Assembly: GCA_964343705.1 (NCBI GenBank)
Contig: CAYFJX010000005.1
Span: 66,791 to 130,790 of the forward strand
Direction of reading: 5' to 3'
Source of the DNA: an uncultured Methanosarcinales archaeon
GTDB taxonomy: Archaea; Nanobdellota; Nanobdellia; Woesearchaeales; UBA12501
Length of the DNA stretch: 64,000 nt
Position numbers and translations under genes: made by a program. This document shows, piece after piece, positions 8,533 through 54,830 of this stretch. Position 1 is the first letter of the stretch; each line of letters starts with the position of its first letter. The notes below the pieces were generated by a model that worked only from the letters and a program-made list of their open reading frames with translations, was not told the origin of the DNA and did no database searches.

Positions 8533-9723
8533 ATGGATTCTGAAACAGTTAGTGCAATTGAACAAAGACGATTTGAAATCGGTCTTTCTGTTTTTAATAT
8601 GGGCACACTTGATGAGAAAGTAGAACATTGTCGTCGACTTGCTCAGACAGGCTTTACCGCGATTCACCTTGATGAGCATGGTGATGAAACATATTCTCTT
8701 GATGAAGTTCGCAGGTTCACTATGGGCTTTCCTATTGACATTCATAACCTGGTGCATCCTGATGTGCGGCCAATGCCAACAAAAGAGGAGCTTGCTGTCT
8801 TGAAAGGGCATGATGTTCGAGCGTACATGTTTCATCCAACACTAGTTGACGATTCAAAGGAACCAACCTTGCGTGAGGATTCAAGAGAATTTGCTGACCG
8901 TGTACAATCTGTTGGTATCAAAGCATTTGCAGTAGTAGATCATGAATCACCTCTTGAGCTTTTGTGGGCGGGATCATACTTGTATGATCCTAACATTTTT
9001 GACGGCATTACGGTCATGACAGTAAAGTATGGTCAGTCAGGACAAGGGTATACTCCAGCAGTTGAAGACTTTATTGCTCAAGTCAGAAAGCGTATGCATC
9101 CCCAACAAAAATTATGGGTTGATGGAGGTATCAGAGACACAACTATTCCATTACATCAGGGTATTGATGGTGTTGTTTCTGCGTCATACTTACTTAAAGC
9201 TGAAGATCCTAAACTTGCATCACAACGTTTGCAGCCAGAAATTGTCATTGCATCTGACCATGCTGGGTATGATCTTAAAAATAATCTTGTTGCCTACTTG
9301 CGAGCTGAAGGAGTGCGTGTTTGGGATCTGGGTTGTTATGAAGAAGTATCTGAACCAGCAACTGATTATCCTCACTACGCAGCAGCTGTGGCTGACGCAG
9401 TAAGCAATTCAATTGATTTGGTGGATGCTGAGGGTCTTTCTTCTGATGAGGCACTCAAAGGCATCCTAGTTTGTGGTTCAGGAATTGGCATGAGTATCAC
9501 AGCAAACAAATTTGATGGCATTCGAGCAGCACTTGTTCAGGATGCGAGAACAGCACGACTTGCAAAAGAACATAATGATGCAAATGTGTTGTGCCTTGGT
9601 CAGCGATACATCACTCCTGACCAAGCATACGCAGCTGTAGATGCGTGGCGAGACGCTTCACATGAAGAAGAACGACACCAGCGACGTGTTGGAAAGATCT
9701 CAGAGATTGAAGCTGGGATTTAA
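8533..9723 (+). CDS. fusion protein: N-terminal ribulose-phosphate 3-epimerase-like TIM barrel + C-terminal ribose-5-phosphate isomerase B (RpiB/LacAB)
   Basis: RPE-like 'ITVMTVKYGQSGQGYTPAVEDFIAQVRK...LWVDGGI'. RpiB 'IVIASDHAGYDLK' and 'ILVCGSGIGMSITANKFDGIRAAL'. Confidence 0.75.
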   Translation: MDSETVSAIEQRRFEIGLSVFNMGTLDEKVEHCRRLAQTGFTAIHLDEHGDETYSLDEVRRFTMGFPIDIHNLVHPDVRPMPTKEELAVLKGHDVRAYMFHPTLVDDSKEPTLREDSREFADRVQSVGIKAFAVVDHESPLELLWAGSYLYDPNIFDGITVMTVKYGQSGQGYTPAVEDFIAQVRKRMHPQQKLWVDGGIRDTTIPLHQGIDGVVSASYLLKAEDPKLASQRLQPEIVIASDHAGYDLKNNLVAYLRAEGVRVWDLGCYEEVSEPATDYPHYAAAVADAVSNSIDLVDAEGLSSDEALKGILVCGSGIGMSITANKFDGIRAALVQDARTARLAKEHNDANVLCLGQRYITPDQAYAAVDAWRDASHEEERHQRRVGKISEIEAGI

Positions 9724-10929
9724 TTACCAAAAATACAATAACACTGGTAACAACAAACAAGCCATTGCTTGAATTCTTCTTACTTTAACAATTGCAGGAA
9801 TCACGCCTATTGCAGTGCTTGTGAAAAGAATGAGCAATCCAATCCATTTAGTAAGAATGATTGTCATAACAATAATAAAAAGGATGATGCTCCATACTAA
9901 TGTTGGATAATGTACTTTACTTATTAGTTTTGAGAAACACCTGCCAAAAAATAGTGCGAGAAATACACTTACTCCTCCAGCAATAAGTGTTGTGGAAAGG
10001 AATACCCCTACTTCTCTAATTCCCACTTCAGAAAGTAACTCTTGGATTGCGATAATGCTACCATTTCTCGCTTTGCCCAAGACATACAAGGTTACCATGC
10101 TGAGTACAAAGTTTGCAGTGCTTATTGAACCCATCAAGACCATAAAACCATGATCTCCTAGTTTTCGTGAGCCAGGAAGTTGCATGCTGATAGTTGCAGC
10201 AGTTGCAGCTCCAAGCCCAGGCATGAGTGCAGTGATGAAGCCTGAGAATTGTCCTGAAAGTAAGGCACGTACAGCAACTCTTTTTCGTAATTGAATTAAG
10301 GGGGATTGTTTTTGTTCTGGAATACAGCTGGTAGTTGTAAGACTTACTAGCAAGGTTGCAACACCAAACAAACCAGATAACAAAGGGAACAGGGAGTGCT
10401 TACTGTTTTGCAGGTTAAGAACTAATAACCCAAGACTACCAGCAAGAAAGAATACAAACACTGCCCAACCACGCTTGTTATCAGACCAGATCACAAAGAA
10501 AATAACAGCAAGCAGTAACCAAAACATACTTGTTGAAAGAATAGGATATGCAAGAGTAACAAGGGGAATCAGCAGTGGAAACAAGAGTACACTCAATAGT
10601 ATTGCACCAAAACTTCCAATAATAGTAAGCTTCACAGCCATTAAACCAAATCCCTTGTGCAAATAACGATGGCCTGGCAGTACACCAAGTGCAGTGGCAC
10701 TGTCAGGAGCACCAAGAAAAATAGAGGGAACAGCATCAAGAAATGTGTGTACTACTGACATGCTAATGATACATACGCAAAGAACAAGTGGTGACGTGAA
10801 CCTTAGCAAGGTGGGTGAAATTGATATAAGCATAACAGCAACTAAGTTGATGTGAATACCTGGTGTGAGGCCAGTGATGCAGCCGCAGGCAATGCCCAGG
10901 CTTACTGCAGTAATGAGTTCAATGAACAT
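9724..10929 (-). CDS. TctA-family (DUF112) integral membrane protein
   Basis: About 12 predicted TM helices. Repeated 'GxxPGxG' segments ('TGLTPGIHI', 'ALMPGLGAA') typical of TctA/DUF112. Confidence 0.65.
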   Translation of the reverse strand: MFIELITAVSLGIACGCITGLTPGIHINLVAVMLISISPTLLRFTSPLVLCVCIISMSVVHTFLDAVPSIFLGAPDSATALGVLPGHRYLHKGFGLMAVKLTIIGSFGAILLSVLLFPLLIPLVTLAYPILSTSMFWLLLAVIFFVIWSDNKRGWAVFVFFLAGSLGLLVLNLQNSKHSLFPLLSGLFGVATLLVSLTTTSCIPEQKQSPLIQLRKRVAVRALLSGQFSGFITALMPGLGAATAATISMQLPGSRKLGDHGFMVLMGSISTANFVLSMVTLYVLGKARNGSIIAIQELLSEVGIREVGVFLSTTLIAGGVSVFLALFFGRCFSKLISKVHYPTLVWSIILFIIVMTIILTKWIGLLILFTSTAIGVIPAIVKVRRIQAMACLLLPVLLYFW

Positions 10930-10944
10930 TTTTACCTCATTTTA

Positions 10945-11154
10945 GGGTGTGTCCCAAGAGTCTTTCTGAGGGGTGGCACTGCCGCAAGGTTTTATCAGGA
11001 AATCTCAAGGGGCGAAGCTCCTTGACGCATCTGAGCTTTGCTCAGATTGCGGCCGAATAATGAGGTGATTTCCGTTAACACTACGAATGAATTTGAGTAG
11101 TTAACACCGCAGTGCCACCCCTCCTGCACAAAAAGCAAGATTTGGGACACACCC
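10945..11154 (+). mobile_element. 210-bp MITE-like element, copy 1 (TIRs GGGTGTGTCCCAA / TTGGGACACACCC, subterminal GGGGTGGCACTGC / GCAGTGCCACCCC)
   Basis: The reverse complement of 53706..53915 matches this copy at 209 of 210 positions. Perfect 13-bp terminal inverted repeats. No ORF inside. Confidence 0.8.
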
Positions 11155-11199
11155 CTCATTTTACTAACATTTATATACTACATAAACTTATGTACCCCT

Positions 11200-11466
11200 A
11201 TGGAACTCAAAGCACACATGCACTATCCCACTTTGAAGACAATCCTTATGGTTGAAGCATTTCTCAAAAAGCATGAGGGGGATCTCCTAAGCAGGAATCA
11301 AATACTTCGGGGCTTGCCTAAAAAAATGGATAGGCAAACACTTAATACTATCCTTACTTATCTTGAAGCATCAGGGAAGATACTTGATGGTTCTAAAGGA
11401 ATACATTGGACATACACTCCTAAAGAGGAGATGGAAAGACTACTAAAAGATGCTCTCATCGTCTAG
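11200..11466 (+). CDS. hypothetical small protein (88 aa)
   Basis: ORF convergent with and overlapping the stop of the RelE-like gene. Possible small DNA-binding protein. Confidence 0.3.
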   Translation: MELKAHMHYPTLKTILMVEAFLKKHEGDLLSRNQILRGLPKKMDRQTLNTILTYLEASGKILDGSKGIHWTYTPKEEMERLLKDALIV

Positions 11467-15135: not shown

Positions 15136-16402
15136 GTTCTTTAAATGCCTCACCAACTAGGTAGATAGAACCAGCAACAACAATCAGGCTATTTGGTCGT
15201 GTGATGGCACGTGCTTTGTCAAGTGCTTCTTTAACATTTTGTGACATAAGAATAACCTTGGTTTCTTCTTCTGGCAGGATCTTGTTGGCATTGTTGTAGG
15301 TGGTGTATATCTTTTCTGGTTCCTCGCTCCTGAAAAATTCAGGTTTTGTGAGGATTATTCTGGTGAAGTGGGGGAATAAGGTAGTTGTCATTTGTTTAAT
15401 GTCTTTGTTGTCCATTGCAGCAAAAACTAAGATGAGTTCATCATACCCAAGTCGCAGTTTAGCAAGTTCCTTGCACAGGGTCTTAACTCCTTGTAGGTTG
15501 TGTGCACAGTCAAATAAGAACTCCTTATTGTCTAGTTGTGCAAATTGCATTCGTCCAGGCCAGTGCACATTCATAAGTCCTTTATGTTGTTGTTCAACAG
15601 TTGTTGACAGTGACTCTATAAGTTGCATTGCACAATTTGCAACTGCAGCGTTTTGTTTTTGGTATTTTCCTTTGAGGTTAGTTTGTGCATAATCAATATC
15701 TTCCTGGTCAATTTTGAGGAGTCGGGCTTTTTTTTCCTGGCATACATTGTGCAACACAGTGAGTACTGTTTCATCGGTGTTGCTGGTAAGTACAGGAACA
15801 CCTTGCTTGATTATTCCTGCTTTTTCAAATGCAATTTTTTCAATGGTATCACCTAAGTGTTCAGTATGTTCAAGTGCAATGTGAGTGATAATGCTGAGCA
15901 AGGTGTTTTCTGCAGGGATAACATTGGTTGCGTCAAAGCGACCGCCTAGGCCTGTTTCAAGTACAACAATGTCAGTGTTGTTTTCTGCAAAGTAATCTAG
16001 TGCCATTACTGTGGTGACTTCAAAGAAGGTTTGATCAGTTCTCAGCTGAAGAAGTTTTTCTGCTCGTTGCTCAAGTTCATGATCTGAGATTGGTGTGTTG
16101 TTTATTTTGATGCGTTCATTGAACTTGATTAAGTGAGGGGAAGTGTAGAGTCCAACTTTTAATCCTGTTTGTTGGAGGATGCTAGCAAGCATTGCACAGG
16201 TTGAACCCTTGCCATTGGTTCCTGCAACGTGGATGACCTTGAGCTTTTTTTCTGGATTGTTAAGCTTGGTAAGGAGTTCAAAGGTAGGGTCAAGTCTCAA
16301 TTGTGACCCAAATCGTTTAAGTGAATATAATTCTTGTATTTTTGACATGTTTTTGGTGGGGTGAATGCAGGGTATATATGTATTGTTGTGTTGGGCTGAC
16401 AT
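15116..16402 (-). CDS. folC: folylpolyglutamate synthase / dihydrofolate synthase (Mur ligase family)
   Basis: P-loop 'VIHVAGTNGKGST', 'YTSPHL'. Mur ligase middle and C-terminal domains. Confidence 0.82.
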   Translation of the reverse strand: MSAQHNNTYIPCIHPTKNMSKIQELYSLKRFGSQLRLDPTFELLTKLNNPEKKLKVIHVAGTNGKGSTCAMLASILQQTGLKVGLYTSPHLIKFNERIKINNTPISDHELEQRAEKLLQLRTDQTFFEVTTVMALDYFAENNTDIVVLETGLGGRFDATNVIPAENTLLSIITHIALEHTEHLGDTIEKIAFEKAGIIKQGVPVLTSNTDETVLTVLHNVCQEKKARLLKIDQEDIDYAQTNLKGKYQKQNAAVANCAMQLIESLSTTVEQQHKGLMNVHWPGRMQFAQLDNKEFLFDCAHNLQGVKTLCKELAKLRLGYDELILVFAAMDNKDIKQMTTTLFPHFTRIILTKPEFFRSEEPEKIYTTYNNANKILPEEETKVILMSQNVKEALDKARAITRPNSLIVVAGSIYLVGEAFKELNIATH

Positions 16403-16553
16403 TTTGTAGGTGGGCTAGGTTCAGCAAATTCTTCAAAATCAAGGAATATTTTCAACTGCACAGATCTAGCATTTTTTAATCCGCCCTGAAGGGCGGTTAA
16501 AACTGTGCAATGTTTGATTGGTTTTTGAAACAGCCCAAGCTGAAACTAATTTT
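16402..16553 (+). repeat. about 152-nt intergenic element, copy A of a 2-member family (candidate structured ncRNA)
   Basis: About 75-80% identical to 42346..42500 in the same orientation. Internal GC hairpin CCGCCC-TGAA-GGGCGG is replaced in copy B by CCAGGCCGG-AAC-CCGGCCTGG (compensatory). Conserved TGGGCT...AGCCCA closing pair. Oligo-T 3' end. Confidence 0.5.
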
Positions 16554-16666
16554 CCCCCTTTACAAACCCATACCTTTATATAGCCCCTATTGCCTCTTTT
16601 CATCATCTGAGTGCCCCAAAGGGGAATTACAGCGCTGGCTGTATGTAAGTCTCGGGAGGACAAAAA

Positions 16667-17245
16667 ATGGCAGAATTAAAACTTGTAATAAATGATCCCA
16701 AAACAGGGAAGGCAGTACAGAAAGAACTTAAGGATGATGCTGTGCAGCCATTCATGGGCCTTAAAATTGGAGACAAGGTCAATGGAGAACTTCTTGACTT
16801 AACTGGTTATGAATTTGAAATTACTGGGGGTAGTGACTTTGCTGGATTCCCAATGCGGAAAGACGTGCCAGGTACTGCTCGTAAACGAATTCTCGCAATT
16901 TCTGGTGTAGGATTAAACAACAAGAAAAAATATCGTAAGAAAAAGAAGAAAGGTTTGCGTACCATGAAAGGTATGCGACAAAGAAAAACTGTTGCAGGAA
17001 ACACAGTCTTTGACAAAACTGCACAACTTAATCTGAAGGTTATCAAAGCTGGAAAAGCAGACTTGTTTGCAGCTCCAGCTCCTGAAGGTGAAGTAGCTCC
17101 TGCTGAAGGCGAAGCTCAATCTGAACAAAGTTCAGATGAGCATTTGAGCTCTGCTCAAATTGCTCCAAAAGAAGAAGCAAAGCAAGCAGAAGCACCAAAA
17201 GAAGCTCCTAAGGAAGAAGCAAAGCCTGAAGAGAAAAAGGAATAA
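16667..17245 (+). CDS. rps6e: 30S ribosomal protein S6e with Ala/Glu/Lys-rich C-terminal extension
   Basis: N-terminal 'LKLVINDPKTGKAVQ...GYEFEITGGSDFAGFPMRKDV' is canonical S6e. TATA-like 'cctttatatag' about 85 nt upstream. Confidence 0.88.
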   Translation: MAELKLVINDPKTGKAVQKELKDDAVQPFMGLKIGDKVNGELLDLTGYEFEITGGSDFAGFPMRKDVPGTARKRILAISGVGLNNKKKYRKKKKKGLRTMKGMRQRKTVAGNTVFDKTAQLNLKVIKAGKADLFAAPAPEGEVAPAEGEAQSEQSSDEHLSSAQIAPKEEAKQAEAPKEAPKEEAKPEEKKE

Positions 17246-21185: not shown

Positions 21186-24100
21186 AAAGTTTGTGTTTCA
21201 TCATTTATGTGAATTCTATAACCAAAGTTTTCTAGGCGCTTTGTTAATGCATCATATTTTGCTTTATTTGGTAACCAGAAACTTGGAGCTGGCCAGTTCT
21301 CACCAGCAAGCAGCCACCATTCAATAGCGTGTTCTGGACTGTTATGAGGTGGCCTCATGAATTGTTGTTGATATTCATTGCATTGTGTTCGTAATGGTCC
21401 TGGAATTTCCAGTTCAAATACTTTGCATGCGTCGACAAATGAGCGAAGTTGGTGAAGCTCCACATCTTCTCCATTATATGTTTCAAGTGCACTTTCTAAA
21501 CACTCGCGAGCAATCCTGTCAATTCTTGTAGTGTTTACACCCTTATGGACTAAGTAATTCTCTTCTGTGTCTTTTGAAGCAATACCTTCATTTGACCGAC
21601 CAGCATAAAGAGGGGGTACTCCATGTTCTACAACACTTAATCGTACATCAAGTGCGAAGTTCCATGCTCCTGACAGTAGTAGCCCATACATAACTGTTTC
21701 ACTTGTTTCAGGCACAACCATGGCTAGGCCAACTGCAGCAATTTGATCTTCATAGACTCCTTTTACAATTTGAGTGGCTGCATAATGCCGTGCAAAAATA
21801 TTTCTGAGTAATCGTCCATGATTATTTTCAATATCATCTAGTATTGGTATCATCTGACTCATGGCATCTAACTTATCTGCGTTTGCTGTATATTGTCTAA
21901 TGCCACGCATACCATTAGGATGACTAACAAAATCACGTATTTTTTGCTCTCGTAGATTTCCTGTTTTTACTTTTCCATGGTTCCAATCATATCTATCAAG
22001 CCATGCTTCCCATGCTTCGCCTTTTGGTGGGGTTAAATATTGTTCTTGTGGAACTTCATTATTGTCGTTGTTTTCTCGTGGCATCAAATCAGGGAACATT
22101 GCTCCTATAAGTCCTATAAGGTGAAACCTTGGTTGTGTTCCTTCCATGTCTTCTCCCATTGCATTATTTTGTAGAAGGGGTTTTTCCTCATCTGTTAGTT
22201 GGTAGATTCTTTCAGTTGGTATGCGCATTTGTTCTGCCCACTCAAGTGGATCTGCTGAAATTCCATGTGCCCATTGTAAGCCAGTTTCTGGTAGCTGGCC
22301 ATACCCACGTGCAATGTTTCTGCCAGTTGCATATATGCGTCCACTATTTCTTCCGACAAGTAATACATTTCTTTGTTCTGGTTCTGAACTTTCATAGTAC
22401 AACATAGCGAGTCTTTCGGTTGCTATGCTATTTTCTACATCAACGGCAGTTGGTGGTGTAATTCCTCGTCGCCGTTCTGCTGCTTCAAGTGATGCCAATC
22501 CTGCAGGTGAGATTGGTGATCTTTGACGTCTTCTGCCTGTTGCTGATGCAGGAATAAAATCAGAAAACTCTCGCTCAATTATTTCTAGGAGTAGTTGTCT
22601 TCTTGGAGATCCAGGTGCTCGTCCTGCACTGTTAGTCCTTTCTAAAAGAGATATCTCATCTCCTTGTAAGCTGTATAATTGTTCATCAGGTATGTTATTA
22701 TCCCTTGCCCAACGTTCAACATTTCGAATACCTGAATAAGAGTACTGCAATCCAAATTCTTCAATTGTTCCTAATTGTGGTCTGATGCCTCTGTCTACTT
22801 CCTCAATCGCATCACCACTTGGGCTGAGGATGAGTATGTTTCTTTCCATAGGTCTTGGTCCAAGAAAGTACACAGCAGCAACATCAGTTCGTGGTTCTGG
22901 TTGTGTTGTTGGAGTTCTTCCTGCTAGTACATCATCAAGTGCACCACCAATATTGTCAGCGTCAATACTTGTACGTTGTTCTCTTCCTGGTTGCTCCAAA
23001 CCTTGTTGACTAAACATATCATTAATCATTCCTGCAACTTCTGTATGGCTTCTTGTAGGATTTAGCAAATCATCATTTAGCCACCCTCGTGGTGTCACAT
23101 GATAGTTATCATCAGTTACTCCCCATCGTTGTTCAATGTTTGTTCTCTCCCGTGCATGAAGAAGCAGGGTGTCATATGATCCAATTGCTGGGTAGCCGCA
23201 GAAGTTGATGTTTCCAATGTACTCCAGTCCTATTTCTTCAATTACTTCTTGTGTTCCTACAATAAGTATTCGTTCAAGGAGCATGTCTGCAAGGATACCA
23301 TGGATTCTTAGATCTCTTTGTGGTGTTGGTGTTGTTGCAACAGCAGGTGTGCTTTGTTCTGTTATAGGCAGTTGTGGTTGAATAAATCTGACAAGCGCAG
23401 CAATATCAGATGGTTCTGATAATCGCGTTCCCAACATTCCAGGTGGTGCAGCAACTCGTTTATAGTTATCTGTATCTCTAAACATATCTCGTGTGCCATT
23501 GGCAACAACTAATCCTTTATAGGGGCCAATATCACGATTGGTAGTTATAATCCCTGCTGGCCCATAGCGTCTCCTCATATTTCTAATTCCTTCTTCATTG
23601 CTAACAATCATGTTGTAACTGGATGTTGAATCTAATAACATGAGGTACTCAGGAGCTTGCGAGTTTACATCTCGTGCAGTTGGCCAATTATCACCAACTA
23701 AATATCTAAATGCGTCAACACCCATGTGTTCGCCTTCTTGCACAACACCATCAACACGAAGCATTGCATCAAGGTCTGCAGGGTCAAGTCTATGCCATCC
23801 TCGTCGTGTGGCAGCAGCTTGTGCACATAACTTAGCAATTAAGGCAGGATTCTCAGGTACTTTGAATTGGTACGCTTCATACACTGCTTGCCAAGTACTT
23901 TGCAAAAGATCAAGAAATGGTCGAGCATGTGTTGTTCGTAAATTCTGTCTAAACTGTGCTTGTGCAACTTCATCAAGAGTTGGGTTTGCAGCAAGTCCAA
24001 GCACCATACTGTCATGCGCGTGAATATTGCTGTGACCCATACGTGTAATCATTAAATCTGCAATTCTTAATTGTGCATAGTGCCATTGCCATTCTTCTAC

Positions 24101-24397: not shown

Positions 24398-26994
24398 TGT
24401 TCTGACCTCTCAGCAATTCGTTCTTCAATAAATGCTAGCATGGCTTCTTTGTCAGGTAGTGGGTCCCTGTGGTTTCCTACTAATCCTTCTGGCCCAATAA
24501 TGCGATCGTATTTTCGTTCCTGGCCAAGAGTGTGTGCCATCCCTTCTGATACAATAAGTCCATGGTAATCGCCTACTTCACACTGAGTACTCTGTAGTCT
24601 GTTTCTCTGGTAATGTGCTGATAACTCATCAATGAGTGTTTCATTACCAACAATAAGCGCATGGTTTCCTTCTTTCGGATCTACTATGATGTCATACACA
24701 ACTGCTTTTTGCGGTTTTTCAATATATACTAGGCCACCTCCCATGCAAACTTGTAGGCCCATTGGCTTGAGTCTTTCTCTTAATGATCGTGCTTCGGAAA
24801 GCGGGGGGTTTGATGTAATACTATCTGAACTAATTGATACAGTGTTTCCAATAATTAAATTCTCAGCTTCTCCAGAAAGAATTGTAAACTCTGCTGCTCG
24901 TTCATACTGGTTGTTTTCTCTAGCAATACCGTACCTGATTACTGCTTCAGCAGGTTGGTAGCCAAATGTGCGGCAGGTGTCAACATATTTTTGTAAGTCT
25001 TCAAGAGATGCTTCAGCTCTCCTTTCAAACATGTCTGCAAGCACTTCTTGAGCAAGTTTATCAAGCCTTGCAGTCTTATTTGGTCCAAGTGTTTGTATGC
25101 AATAATTATCTTCGTTGTCTTTAGCTTCAATTGCTTTAGGGATAGTACTTACACTGTCGCGGTAACTTGTTTCACTGTTTTGAAGACGAAGACAGCCAGC
25201 TTTGTCTAAGTGCCTTGCACGAATTAATCCTTCAAGTACTGGTTCAAGCATTTCTGGAACATCTGCTGCAAGCTCCATTGCACGTTGATGGTCTCCATCA
25301 ACAATAAGTTTTGCAGCGTAGTGGTTGGCAAGGAATTTGGTTCGTCTAGTGCCTAATTCATATCTTGGGAAAACATCTTTGACAGATTCAGGATTTGTTA
25401 TTCGTAATCGCTCAACCATGTTAGGCAGCTGATCAGAGAATGCTTCTACATTATGATCACTGAAGTTTCCAGTTTTAACTTTTCCTCGGTTCCAGTCGTA
25501 CTTGTCTCGCCATGCTTCCCATTGTCCAATCCCCCTTAGTCGTTCAACTATATTTCGTGCTCTTTTGTAACTAGGTAGGTTTTGATGGTGATTTAATCCA
25601 GTAAGGGTTTGCAGTTCATCGCTGCTTAACACATGTATTTTTTCAGAGGGAGTGCGAATTGCTTCAAGAAATTGTGAAGAAATTCTATCAAAACTAAGTA
25701 GGTAATATTGATGGTGTCTTTGTAGATTGAAATTTCTGACTTCGAAGCTTTGAGCGTAGCTGTGAGTTCTGGACATTTTTCCCTCTATTTCGGGTTTGCA
25801 GTAAAATGTCAGGTCTCCATCTGTTGCATTTTGTGTCACGAAAAGAACCAAGTCATCAAAGCTTGGTCCAAAGTGTTCTTGTATTTTTTGTTTAAGTATC
25901 TCATGTTGTTCTTCTGAAAAACCAGATAGTGTGTCCAAACTTATATTAACACCAAGATTGTCTGCAGTGAACACACGAGGTAGATCAAGCTCTTCTTGTA
26001 CTTGTCGGATCTGGCCAGGGTCTTCTAAAAAAAATACTTGCCGCTTAGCAACTTGTCCCCAGCTTATGTGTCCATTGGGTGGTCCTGCCTGAAGATTATA
26101 GCCAATAAGGTAGGCTTGATCCTCTGCCTCGTTGACAATTAGTCCTTCATACAATAGTTCTAGTGTTGCTGTTTCTACAGGTGCAGCATCAAAACCAGTA
26201 ATAAGGTTTTCAGCAACAGTTCTCAACTGGCCTGGTGTCATTGTTGTACTTCGTGCGCTAAGTTCTATTTCTAATCTCCTAGCTTCAACATCATTTCTAG
26301 CAAAATCTTCTACAGTTTGTGCAATCAATTGAGGGGTGACTTGTAGGCTAGTGGGTTCAGTCCACCCACCTAATGGTTCTTGTGCTTGGATCCTATCAAG
26401 TTCTTCATCTTCACGAACACGCATAACATGGTAAATATCTTCTGCTGTTCCATCACGGAATGCTGAAAAGTTGTGACGTTGTCTCCATCCAATTCGTTGT
26501 AATGCTTCTTCACTTTTGTCACCTTGCCCATTTGCCATAAGCAAAAGATTGATTCCTTCTGCAAGTTCTGCATCTACACCTACAAAAAAGTCGTTTGCAA
26601 ACTTTGCTGCTGCAGCTTTTCTCTCATAATACACTTCCCATCTTTGGCGTTCGTGTTTGCGGCCTGCTACATTGTTTAGAATTGCAAGTTCATGGGGGTC
26701 ACTGGTGTTCCATGCATTATCATTGCGACGCGGTGCGTCTTCAGCAAGGTCTTGATTAAACACTACTTGGTGTGCCCGCATTGCATCAAGATATCCTCCA
26801 ACTGTTTCTTTAACAAGTCGCACGTCCCCATTGCCCTTAAATAAACCCATAAAGTCAAAGTTTGGTCTATCATGTTGGATCAAGCGAAGTGCTGCAATGA
26901 CTTCTTCTGCCAGACTGGTTGTATAGTCAACTGCGTCCAAGAACGAGAACTTGGTGACATTCTCAAGTGTGAGAGGAAGTTCTGGCTTACTCAT
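24394..26994 (-). CDS. giant hypothetical protein (866 aa), paralogue of the 1079-aa protein, with extra C-terminal domain
   Basis: Uninterrupted ORF. Block 'WEAWRDKYDWNRGKVKTGN'. C-terminal about 170 aa with 'VCMGGGLVYI...LIVGNETLIDEL'. ATGA overlap with downstream gene. Confidence 0.8.
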   Translation of the reverse strand: MSKPELPLTLENVTKFSFLDAVDYTTSLAEEVIAALRLIQHDRPNFDFMGLFKGNGDVRLVKETVGGYLDAMRAHQVVFNQDLAEDAPRRNDNAWNTSDPHELAILNNVAGRKHERQRWEVYYERKAAAAKFANDFFVGVDAELAEGINLLLMANGQGDKSEEALQRIGWRQRHNFSAFRDGTAEDIYHVMRVREDEELDRIQAQEPLGGWTEPTSLQVTPQLIAQTVEDFARNDVEARRLEIELSARSTTMTPGQLRTVAENLITGFDAAPVETATLELLYEGLIVNEAEDQAYLIGYNLQAGPPNGHISWGQVAKRQVFFLEDPGQIRQVQEELDLPRVFTADNLGVNISLDTLSGFSEEQHEILKQKIQEHFGPSFDDLVLFVTQNATDGDLTFYCKPEIEGKMSRTHSYAQSFEVRNFNLQRHHQYYLLSFDRISSQFLEAIRTPSEKIHVLSSDELQTLTGLNHHQNLPSYKRARNIVERLRGIGQWEAWRDKYDWNRGKVKTGNFSDHNVEAFSDQLPNMVERLRITNPESVKDVFPRYELGTRRTKFLANHYAAKLIVDGDHQRAMELAADVPEMLEPVLEGLIRARHLDKAGCLRLQNSETSYRDSVSTIPKAIEAKDNEDNYCIQTLGPNKTARLDKLAQEVLADMFERRAEASLEDLQKYVDTCRTFGYQPAEAVIRYGIARENNQYERAAEFTILSGEAENLIIGNTVSISSDSITSNPPLSEARSLRERLKPMGLQVCMGGGLVYIEKPQKAVVYDIIVDPKEGNHALIVGNETLIDELSAHYQRNRLQSTQCEVGDYHGLIVSEGMAHTLGQERKYDRIIGPEGLVGNHRDPLPDKEAMLAFIEERIAERSEQ

Positions 26995-27474: not shown

Positions 27475-27700
27475 TGGGCAAAAGAACACGCCTCTCAGCT
27501 TTTACTCACAGACAATATTAAGCACATTGTTGTCTGTTCGTAATAGTAAAGGTTGTTTGATTTATTTGTCCTTTACTAAAAAGAAACATAAAACCTTTGC
27601 TCCCTAACAAATGAAGTAGGGGGTAGTATATAAACTTTGCGTAGATATTAAGTATTATGAGCTCATTTTTGGCCTAAATAGGCGATTTTGTACATGTTTC

Positions 27701-42285: not shown

Positions 42286-42345
42286 ACATGATTTTGTGTG
42301 TTAAGCGTTTTTATAGTTTTAGTTTTTAAGGGTTAAAGGCTAAGG

Positions 42346-42500
42346 TTTTGTAGGTGGGCTAGGTTCAGCAAATTCTTAAAAATCAAAGAAGATTTTAATC
42401 ACACAGATTTAAAATTTATAATCCAGGCCGGAACCCGGCCTGGTTAAAACTGTGTAATATCAGATTGGTTTTTGAAACAGCCCAGACTGAAACTAATTTT
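42346..42500 (+). repeat. about 155-nt intergenic element, copy B of the 16402..16553 family (candidate structured ncRNA)
   Basis: Same orientation as copy A. Conserved flanks. Variant but still self-complementary internal hairpin. Oligo-T end. Confidence 0.5.
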
Positions 42501-42519
42501 GCCTTGCCTTTGTTAACTC

Positions 42520-45754: not shown

Positions 45755-46117
45755 GTTTACAGCCCGCCGGCTATAGTAAAAGACAAATTATTTGGATGCC
45801 TTTTACTATTACGAACAGACAACAATTCCATTGTTATTGTCTGTGAGTATAGTTTATTCTTGGTTTGTTTTGAATTTTTTTTGAGAAGACAGCTAGCACT
45901 AGTCAAAACCCGTCTTCAAGACTGTTATAGAAACCTAGCTACCGCCAGAAACCATTGGAGATTTTGAATAAAGTTGTAACTAAGAAAATGATATTAATTT
46001 TGCCACACATACTGATATTTTTGTGTCATAGTAGTGAATAAAGTGACACTTATATTTAAACCTTTGGTGTAGTAAAATATAAATACTCCCTCATAACTCT
46101 TTGTTTTAGGTGAGCTT

Positions 46118-53598: not shown

Positions 53599-53691
53599 GC
53601 CCTTGTAGCATAGTGGTAGTGCACTGCCTTGGTATGGTCAGTAATGACAACAAAGAGGCAGAGGTCCCGAGTTCAAATCTCGGCAAGGGCT
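53599..53691 (+). tRNA. tRNA-Thr (anticodon GGT) with 21-nt intron at canonical 37/38
   Basis: Acceptor GCCCTTG/CAAGGGC, D stem GCAT/GTGC, anticodon stem CTGCC/GGCAG, loop TTGGTA[intron]A, T arm CCGAG-TTCAAAT-CTCGG. Confidence 0.75.
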
Positions 53692-53705
53692 TTTTAATTC
53701 TTTAC

Positions 53706-53915
53706 GGGTGTGTCCCAAATCTTGCTTTTTGTGCAGGAGGGGTGGCACTGCGGTGTTAACTACTCAAATCCATTCGTAGTGTTAACGGAAATCACCTCAT
53801 TATTCGGCCGCAATCTGAGCAAAGCTCAGATGCGTCAAGGAGCTTCGCCCCTTGAGATTTCCTGATAAAACCTTGCGGCAGTGCCACCCCTCAGAAAGAC
53901 TCTTGGGACACACCC
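53706..53915 (-). mobile_element. 210-bp MITE-like element, copy 2 (inverted relative to copy 1)
   Basis: Reverse complement matches 10945..11154 at 209 of 210 positions. Immediately 3' of tRNA-Thr. Confidence 0.8.
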
Positions 53916-53960
53916 ATTCTTTACAGTAGGCTTATATACAGCTAGTTTTTCCAAGGATGT

Positions 53961-54830
53961 ATGGCTAGGATATTAGATTTCCAATGGAGAAAAGCAAAAA
54001 AAACATTAGAAGAGTTATCTAAAACTCTTGTGGACTTGGAGAGTAAAGCACAGGCTCTCCAAGAGAAATCAAATGTTGTTGATCTTTCTGATAAGTTGCA
54101 GATTAAGAAATTGCATGATCTTCCTAAAAAAACTTTAGCCTACATAGTGGTTGCTCATCATGAAGGGTTGGATGCTTTTGAGAATCATGATTTTGAAAAA
54201 GCAGCTGAAATCTTTGGCGCGTTAGTTGGATCTAACTATTTAATTCCAGGGTGTGCGGAATATTTTGAACTTGCATATTCATTATACAAAACAGGAAGAG
54301 CTGAAGATGCAATCTCAGCGTGTCATGAGGGGATCTCAGAAGGTGTTTCAGAAAAATCAAAGCTTTACTTGGTTCTTGCAGATTGCTATGCTGATCAAGA
54401 AACCTTGGAAGGGTTAGATAATGCAAGGTATTGTATTGCTAAAGCACAAGAACTCATAAATGAGAAAGGGAAGTTTCTAGACCTGCTTAAAGTATTACAT
54501 TCTAATCTTGGGATTAAGCAACATGCGTGTGCAATTGTTGGGCTAGAGCATAAGTTTGATGACATTAATGAGCAACTTAATTATACCTTGACCTTGCAGG
54601 CTGAGGGAAAGTCATACAATGTTTTACTGCCAATCACAATCGTTGACGAAGATGGAAATGAATTTTTCCCTAGATCCTTGCCAGAAGATATGCTTCCACA
54701 GGCATTTAAAGTTATGAGAGAGGCTTGTACACAGGCAATTGGAAAATCAGTTTACTTTTCTGATGAGATCTTGGAACGAGAAGGTGTTCAACAAGAAGAT
54801 ATCTCATACAGGACATTCGAGCGGGATTAG
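53961..54830 (+). CDS. hypothetical protein (289 aa)
   Basis: ORF with complex composition. Confidence 0.45.
   Translation: MARILDFQWRKAKKTLEELSKTLVDLESKAQALQEKSNVVDLSDKLQIKKLHDLPKKTLAYIVVAHHEGLDAFENHDFEKAAEIFGALVGSNYLIPGCAEYFELAYSLYKTGRAEDAISACHEGISEGVSEKSKLYLVLADCYADQETLEGLDNARYCIAKAQELINEKGKFLDLLKVLHSNLGIKQHACAIVGLEHKFDDINEQLNYTLTLQAEGKSYNVLLPITIVDEDGNEFFPRSLPEDMLPQAFKVMREACTQAIGKSVYFSDEILEREGVQQEDISYRTFERD

Follow-up and report, generated by a model that had tools for sequence, protein, structure and literature searches.

Two almost identical sequences of 210 bp lie in opposite orientation, 42.5 kb apart, in the stretch of 64,000 nucleotides analysed here (hereafter the window), which belongs to a metagenome-derived contig. 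This locus raises the question of what kind of unit the two sequences represent, how they reached their present positions and what their arrival meant for the adjacent genes. The unit is best understood as a MITE, that is, a non-coding and non-autonomous DNA transposon moved in trans by a DDE transposase with a 9-bp stagger, a reading to which a probability of about 0.87 can be given. The same interpretation had been proposed in an earlier reading of the sequence alone; it is supported here, and further strengthened by target-site duplications (TSDs) of 9 bp at both copies.

Architecture of the repeat unit

Copy 1 (10945–11154, plus strand, taken as the reference orientation) matches the reverse complement of copy 2 (53706–53915, minus strand) at 209 of 210 positions (blastn E ~1e-106), and its length is as short as expected for a MITE. 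Identity between the copies breaks off precisely at terminal inverted repeats (TIRs) of 13 bp (GGGTGTGTCCCAA), as it should at the ends of such an element, and the flanks of the two copies are unrelated past the duplications. Motif searches place the TIRs of copy 1 at 10945–10957 (left, plus strand) and 11142–11154 (right, minus strand). The repeat is perfect (13/13, 0 mismatches) at all four element ends and is restricted to them, no other site being detected in the window with up to two mismatches allowed. Nested within the TIRs is a second inverted repeat, likewise limited to its four sites. Its left member (10968–10982, plus strand) lies 11 nt inside the TIR, while its right member (11109–11123, minus strand) lies 19 nt inside; it is possibly a second transposase-binding site. 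The GC content of the element reaches 50.5%, compared with 39.3% for the window.

The sequence-only reading had described the near-identical inverted pair, the perfect TIRs, the nested repeat and a single A/G difference between the copies. The first two are borne out as they stood. The nested repeat is real but longer than described, extending beyond GGGGTGGCACTGC to 15 bp (GAGGGGTGGCACTGC). The single difference is also confirmed, its coordinates needing correction: it had been placed at 11089 and 53772, off by 1 and 2, and is found at element position 146, with A at 11090 and C on the plus strand (G in element orientation) at 53770. The site at 11090 falls within a hairpin loop of the core. 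An additional A-to-T change, in the spacer between TIR and subterminal repeat, is seen in a contig of the copy-2 junction from ENA run ERR2281801, which extends 149 nt into the element; the change marks a variant in the population or else another copy.

The strongest evidence for transposition comes from the TSDs, which were absent from the earlier reading. Each of the two copies is flanked by its own perfect 9-bp direct repeat, and the repeated sequence differs between the sites: CTCATTTTA at copy 1, where the left repeat (10936–10944) is identical to the right one (11155–11163), and ATTCTTTAC at copy 2, on the tRNA side (53697–53705) and the gene side (53916–53924). A 9-bp match is expected by chance with a probability of ~4e-6 per copy, and two independent ones with ~1e-11, so that these two different and perfect 9-mers are the TSDs of two separate insertion events. 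The bases outside the element ends are A/C at copy 1 and T/G at copy 2; because they differ between the copies, a reading of the TSDs as 8 bp is impossible with consistent ends.

Internal hairpins, also proposed from the sequence, are borne out by folding. The whole element reaches -106.9 kcal/mol (z = -9.6) when folded as RNA, z = -8.9 being obtained for DNA, and the core alone (122 nt, 10985–11106) reaches -46.7 kcal/mol with z = -6.0, its minimum-energy structure accounting for 16% of the ensemble. Since the core without the inverted repeats still gives z = -6.0, the strong folding is not due to these repeats only. The hairpin core (10983–11108) has GGAAATC...GATTTCC as its closing stem and contains the local hairpins CAAGGGGC-GAA-GCTCCTTG, GCATCTGAGC-TTT-GCTCAGATTGC and GTTAACACTAC...GTAGTTAAC. 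A palindromic core hairpin of 22 nt also finds a 20/22 match at 17117–17138, within the part of the gene for ribosomal protein S6e that encodes its C-terminal extension (blastn E = 0.003). The two mismatches at the S6e site are mutually compensatory, and the match is probably due to chance.

The element lacks coding capacity, as had been stated. Six-frame translation gives short frames only, the longest being an ORF of 51–54 aa whose database relatives are nothing other than further copies of the element, and Pfam returned no significant match for any of these frames. Searches against Rfam gave no match either, whether at gathering thresholds or with E values up to 10.

Assembly support, further copies and content of the window

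Independent assemblies of runs ERR2281800-804 (ENA PRJEB17505, a project of which no mention was found in the literature searched), together with Logan, were reached through the proteins encoded beside the copies. The junction between flank and element is recovered in four contigs from three runs for site 1 and in five contigs from four runs for site 2, and all recovered contigs of a given site carry the identical junction. The MEGAHIT k127 contigs mostly break off after 126 nt of element sequence (95 and 149 nt in two of them), and the Logan contigs do so after 29 nt. It is well known that a de Bruijn assembler halts k-1 nt into a repeat having more than one flank. Such a stop, k-1 nt in, is the behaviour expected of a true genomic repeat with more than one flank. 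An assembly artefact, named at the outset as the outcome that would undo the MITE interpretation, is excluded by the recurrence of both junctions across the independent assemblies of the PRJEB17505 runs.

At least two more copies exist beyond the window. They were detected by using the spurious internal ORF of 51–54 aa as a bait in a collection of 5.8 billion proteins and are located on NCBI contigs of 31,007 bp (P0001) and 228,344 bp (P0002), which, together with the two copies of the window, gives several copies at unrelated loci, as expected for a MITE. An intact TIR is implied for P0002. In the case of P0001, the TIR is mutated (GGGTATGTTCCAA, inferred by back-translation) and the core is unchanged: its three inferred substitutions all fall within the terminal 30 nt, with 44 core codons unaltered. 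A concatenate of all remaining reading frames retrieved no more copies from the protein collection, which indicates a small number of sampled copies (four or more).

Homologues of the TctA protein encoded next to copy 1 place the window in the Woesearchaeota (DPANN). TctA identity to the best-matching species representatives of GTDB is only 44–65%, and the element, sought in these closest GTDB relatives, is present in none of their corresponding loci. In the protein collection, no relative reaches 90% protein identity.

In agreement with the earlier reading, no transposase domain was detected in the window by Pfam scans of 30 ORFs combined with precomputed Pfam annotation of the two flanks, a coverage that extends to all but some 15 mid-window ORFs. 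The ORFs scanned correspond to ordinary archaeal genes, and one protein has Fis-type HTH motifs and no DDE domain. Among the genes of the window, an ORF of 396 aa (8533–9723) encodes a fusion of ribulose-phosphate 3-epimerase and RpiB-type ribose-5-phosphate isomerase according to Pfam. Three large consecutive ORFs occupy the minus strand between 18921 and 26994. The first encodes a Ser/Thr protein kinase of 754 aa, while for those that follow (1079 and 866 aa) Pfam gave no match, and they have an internal repeat in common (21942–22013 and 25451–25522).

Other repeated sequences occur in the window. A second intergenic family, of ~165 nt, is represented by two direct copies (16394–16556 and 42338–42503) that are ~88–90% identical, each just upstream of a minus-strand gene and without Rfam match. 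The stem of their central hairpin differs wholly in sequence while its pairing is kept (TCCGCCC-TGAA-GGGCGG versus CCAGGCCGG-AACC-CGGCCTGG), which gives the family the appearance of a structured RNA or of a leader that has been conserved. Another pair, inverted and 79% alike (27503–27578 and 45774–45849), displays two conserved hairpins with variable loops in each member. A compensatory change affects the second stem, AGTAAAGG/CCTTTACT in one and AGTAAAAG/CTTTTACT in the other; no Rfam match was obtained, and the two are candidate paralogous small non-coding RNAs.

Insertion sites and neighbouring promoters

Excision of the element together with one copy of the TSD restores two short AT-rich spacers, of 51 nt at site 1 and 50 nt at site 2. 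Before the insertion, site 1 consisted of 51 nt of divergent spacer with a single TATA-like box at its centre, located between a gene for a TctA-family membrane protein (9724–10929, minus strand; PF01970) and an ORF of 88 aa (11200–11466). Copy 1 has its left end 15 nt from the ATG of the TctA gene and its right end 15 nt from the TATA-like box shared by the two genes of the spacer (TTTATATA, 11170–11177), and it now stands between the TctA gene and this box. Seven orthologous loci of Woesearchaeota have a TATA-like box 20–27 nt upstream of the TctA ATG, whereas the equivalent position in the window is occupied by the GC-rich TIR. A spacing of 20–27 nt between TATA box and ATG is that expected for leaderless or short-leader archaeal transcripts. 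As copy 1 now intervenes between the TctA gene and the TATA box ancestral to it, transcription of this gene would either traverse the whole element or begin inside it: in the first case the transcript would have the structured element as a leader of ~220 nt, in the second it would arise from a promoter inside the element.

Site 2 was originally a 50-nt spacer between an intron-containing tRNA gene (53599–53691, plus strand) and a gene for a TPR-like protein of 289 aa (53961–54830). The TATA-like box of the latter (TTATATA, 53932–53938, plus strand) is found 16 nt from copy 2. The tRNA was identified by ARAGORN and by direct reading of the sequence. With its intron of 21 nt at the canonical 37/38 position the anticodon is GGT (Thr), while ARAGORN places the intron non-canonically at 32/33 and returns '???' or Phe(AAA); tRNA-Thr(GGU) is the most likely identity. 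The earlier description of copy 2 as lying directly 3′ of tRNA-Thr is accurate as to the position, the 3′ end of the tRNA being 14 nt from copy 2 with a T-rich terminator in between, and holds for the threonine identity only if the canonical intron position is adopted, the ARAGORN calls being ambiguous.

At both sites, the distance between element end and TATA-like box is thus 15–16 nt. The boxes would act as promoters, to judge from their sequence and placement, and an insertion at this distance may mean that promoter DNA is a preferred target, as seen in two cases (n = 2). No empty-site allele or polymorphic insertion was found among the recovered contigs with the neighbouring genes, all of which carry the junction. 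A protein match considered as an empty-site candidate (P0004) was rejected, as it concerned the wrong end of the gene.

Mechanism of transposition and its alternatives

Transposition of the element can be envisaged as follows. A DDE-type transposase, encoded elsewhere in the present genome or formerly there, would recognize the 13-bp TIRs and probably also the 15-bp subterminal repeats. The ends of the element are joined to target DNA whose strands have been cut 9 bp apart, and the 9-bp duplications result when the gaps are repaired. Two independent simple insertions of this kind took place in AT-rich, promoter-bearing intergenic spacers of ~50 nt, and the one at copy 1 has, as a side effect, moved the ancestral TATA box away from the TctA gene. 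The divergence of 0.5%, the perfect TIRs and the intact TSDs suggest that insertion was recent and that the element may be active, as the earlier reading had it. Gene conversion could also keep the copies alike, and only two copies are available as DNA.

The family of the partner transposase can be approached from the ends of the element. Their signature, GG-nn-nTGT-nn-CAA(A), and the 9-bp TSD would point to a partner of the IS6/IS26 type (archaeal clade) or of the IS1 family. These two are about equally likely, and it is fairly probable that the partner belongs to one or the other, the remainder of the probability going to an undescribed family. Members of the IS6 family have GG tips followed by cTGTt and caaa motifs, and ISfinder holds two IS6-derived MITEs, of 227 and 336 bp (PMC7986276). 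Archaeal IS6-like elements often start with GG, with G7, no G10 and TIRs of 12–18 bp, and the TSD of the family is normally 8 bp, 9 bp being recorded only for ISH15 and ISPfu5 (PMC6807381). The present element resembles the archaeal clade (ISH14, ISH15, ISH29 and ISPfu types) by its GG tips, G7, TGT at 6–8, CAA(A) at 11–14 and lack of G10, its end GGGTGTGTCCCAA(G/A) following the consensus GG..cTGTt..caaa. The TIR of 13 bp falls within the 12–18-bp range, the size is close to that of the two IS6-derived MITEs, and the family is widespread in archaea. The element differs from IS6/IS26, however, by a TSD of 9 bp instead of 8 bp at both copies and by the usual cointegrate route of that family, which would require a resolution step to yield the simple insertions present here; in addition, no IS6-type transposase was found.

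TSDs of the IS1 family range from 8 to 9 bp, with 9 bp being typical, including for E. coli IS1, and the 9-bp TSD found here agrees with this range. The ends of the element (GGGTGTG) conform to the GGnnnTG pattern of IS1, the TIR of an ISAba3-like member of the family (GGTGGTGTTTCAA) matches at 9/13 positions, and the ends of E. coli IS1 (GGTRATG..CCAAC) have the GG..TG..CCAA pattern in common with it; an IS1-family example with an 8-bp TSD is on record. Conversely, alignment to the E. coli ends needs gaps, the ISAba3-like TIR is mismatched at 4/13 positions and IS1 is less common in archaea. InsA- or InsB-like sequences are lacking, tblastn with E. coli IS1 InsA/InsB having returned nothing from the window or any of the fetched loci.

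Searches for an autonomous partner with matching ends were negative in the window, GTDB representatives, JGI metagenomes, IMG/VR, plasmids and phages. The exact end pattern (TIR, N8-20 and subterminal repeat) had 0 matches in 185,579 GTDB species genomes, the JGI metagenomes and IMG/VR. The relaxed pattern GGGTNTGTNCCAA-N5-25-GGGGTGGCAC had 0 matches in IMG/VR; its nine matches in JGI metagenomes were dismissed as chance, being on unrelated, mostly high-GC contigs devoid of further similarity. The TIR pair at the spacing of the MITE and the central hairpin each gave 0 matches in IMG/VR, and blastn of the element gave nothing in plasmids and only chance-level matches in phages (E = 0.7). No archaeal IS6 element, sought for comparison of ends, was found in the first 50 kb of pNRC200.

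The element shares the main traits of prokaryotic MITEs such as MITEAba12, QMITE2 and those of Sulfolobus and haloarchaea, which are small, non-coding, provided with TIRs and 7–9-bp TSDs, inserted in AT-rich intergenic targets, strongly folded and dependent on transposase supplied in trans. Among them, MITEAba12 from Acinetobacter measures 113 bp and has 9-bp TSDs, and QMITE2 of Coxiella has a comparably strong fold (dG -113); the MITEs of Sulfolobus and haloarchaea have been catalogued (PMC10969869). What sets the present element apart from the known ones is the absence of sequence similarity to anything searchable, the DPANN host, the extra subterminal repeat of 15 bp with unequal spacing (11/19 nt) and a core built from several local hairpins in place of a single long palindrome. 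In 2024, a survey covering 8,220 archaeal genomes ranked a Woesearchaeal genome among the most MITE-dense of archaea, with 105 MITEs per Mb (PMC11602168). The element agrees with this population in host group and kind, and differs from it in copy number, only four or more copies being evident here. Since Woesearchaeal MITEs are on record (PMC11602168), both the kind of element and the host group are known. The element has all the structural features that define a MITE and is thus ordinary in kind, MITEs being already documented, including Woesearchaeal ones, and its sequence family matches nothing searchable. Mildly unusual points are the GC excess, the hairpin core, the bipartite and unequally spaced ends, the insertion next to TATA boxes and the separation of one gene from its promoter.

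These unusual points bear on another explanation, in which the unit would be a mobile regulatory or structured-RNA cassette, spread in the manner of a MITE and retaining its hairpin core for a function as promoter, leader, processing site or small RNA. The core is indeed far more structured than shuffled sequences, with a well-defined minimum-energy structure. It belongs to an element of 50.5% GC in a genome of 39%, and in both copies the same element end faces the start of a gene, 15–16 nt from a TATA-like box. Furthermore, copy 1 displaces the TATA box of an intact TctA gene and is present in all site-1 contigs, and in P0001 the inferred substitutions have spared the core. Yet strong folding is common in ordinary MITEs, QMITE2 being an example, the element contains only a weak TATA-like motif (GATAAAAC), and Rfam provides no match. 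Moreover, the two DNA copies are too few for covariation, and the regularities in orientation and TATA distance rest on n = 2. A retained function of this kind is unlikely. Similarly doubtful is a more specific version, according to which a GC-rich structured cassette, acquired horizontally, would insert ~15–16 nt from TATA boxes and rewire the adjacent leaderless genes; if true, a structured leader, promoter or small RNA would alter the expression of neighbouring genes in a reduced DPANN genome. The GC excess itself could, with a similarly low probability, mean that the element originates from the host organism of the symbiont.

Explanations that dispense with independent transposition fare far worse. 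Strong folding and an intergenic location would equally be found if a structured RNA gene that does not move, or some other host repeat, existed in two paralogous copies, without any transposon. Such copies would not be expected to have perfect TIRs and different perfect 9-bp TSDs at their exact ends, nor to lie in unrelated contexts, one of them splitting a 51-nt promoter spacer, and the lack of an Rfam match also argues against them; this origin is very improbable. Lower still is the probability of an assembly artefact, or of the copies being the two ends of a single rearrangement (composite transposon or intramolecular replicative inversion), which the inverted arrangement on a metagenome-derived contig might evoke. 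Both junctions recur in independent assemblies. An inversion would have split the TSDs between the copies and a composite transposon would have a single TSD, at its outer ends only, whereas here each copy has its own matched TSD; the pair is therefore neither a composite transposon nor the outcome of one intramolecular replicative inversion. Since their insertion, the inverted copies have not recombined with each other.

Read as a MITE, the element reveals no new mechanism. It represents a clean and well-delimited case of recent transposition in a DPANN archaeon. Genomes of DPANN lineages are very small, and mobile DNA is usually scarce in them. The element provides a handle for tracing its partner transposase and, through its insertion sites, for tracking strains. 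It also opens the question of how a gene responds when its TATA box has been moved 219 bp away.
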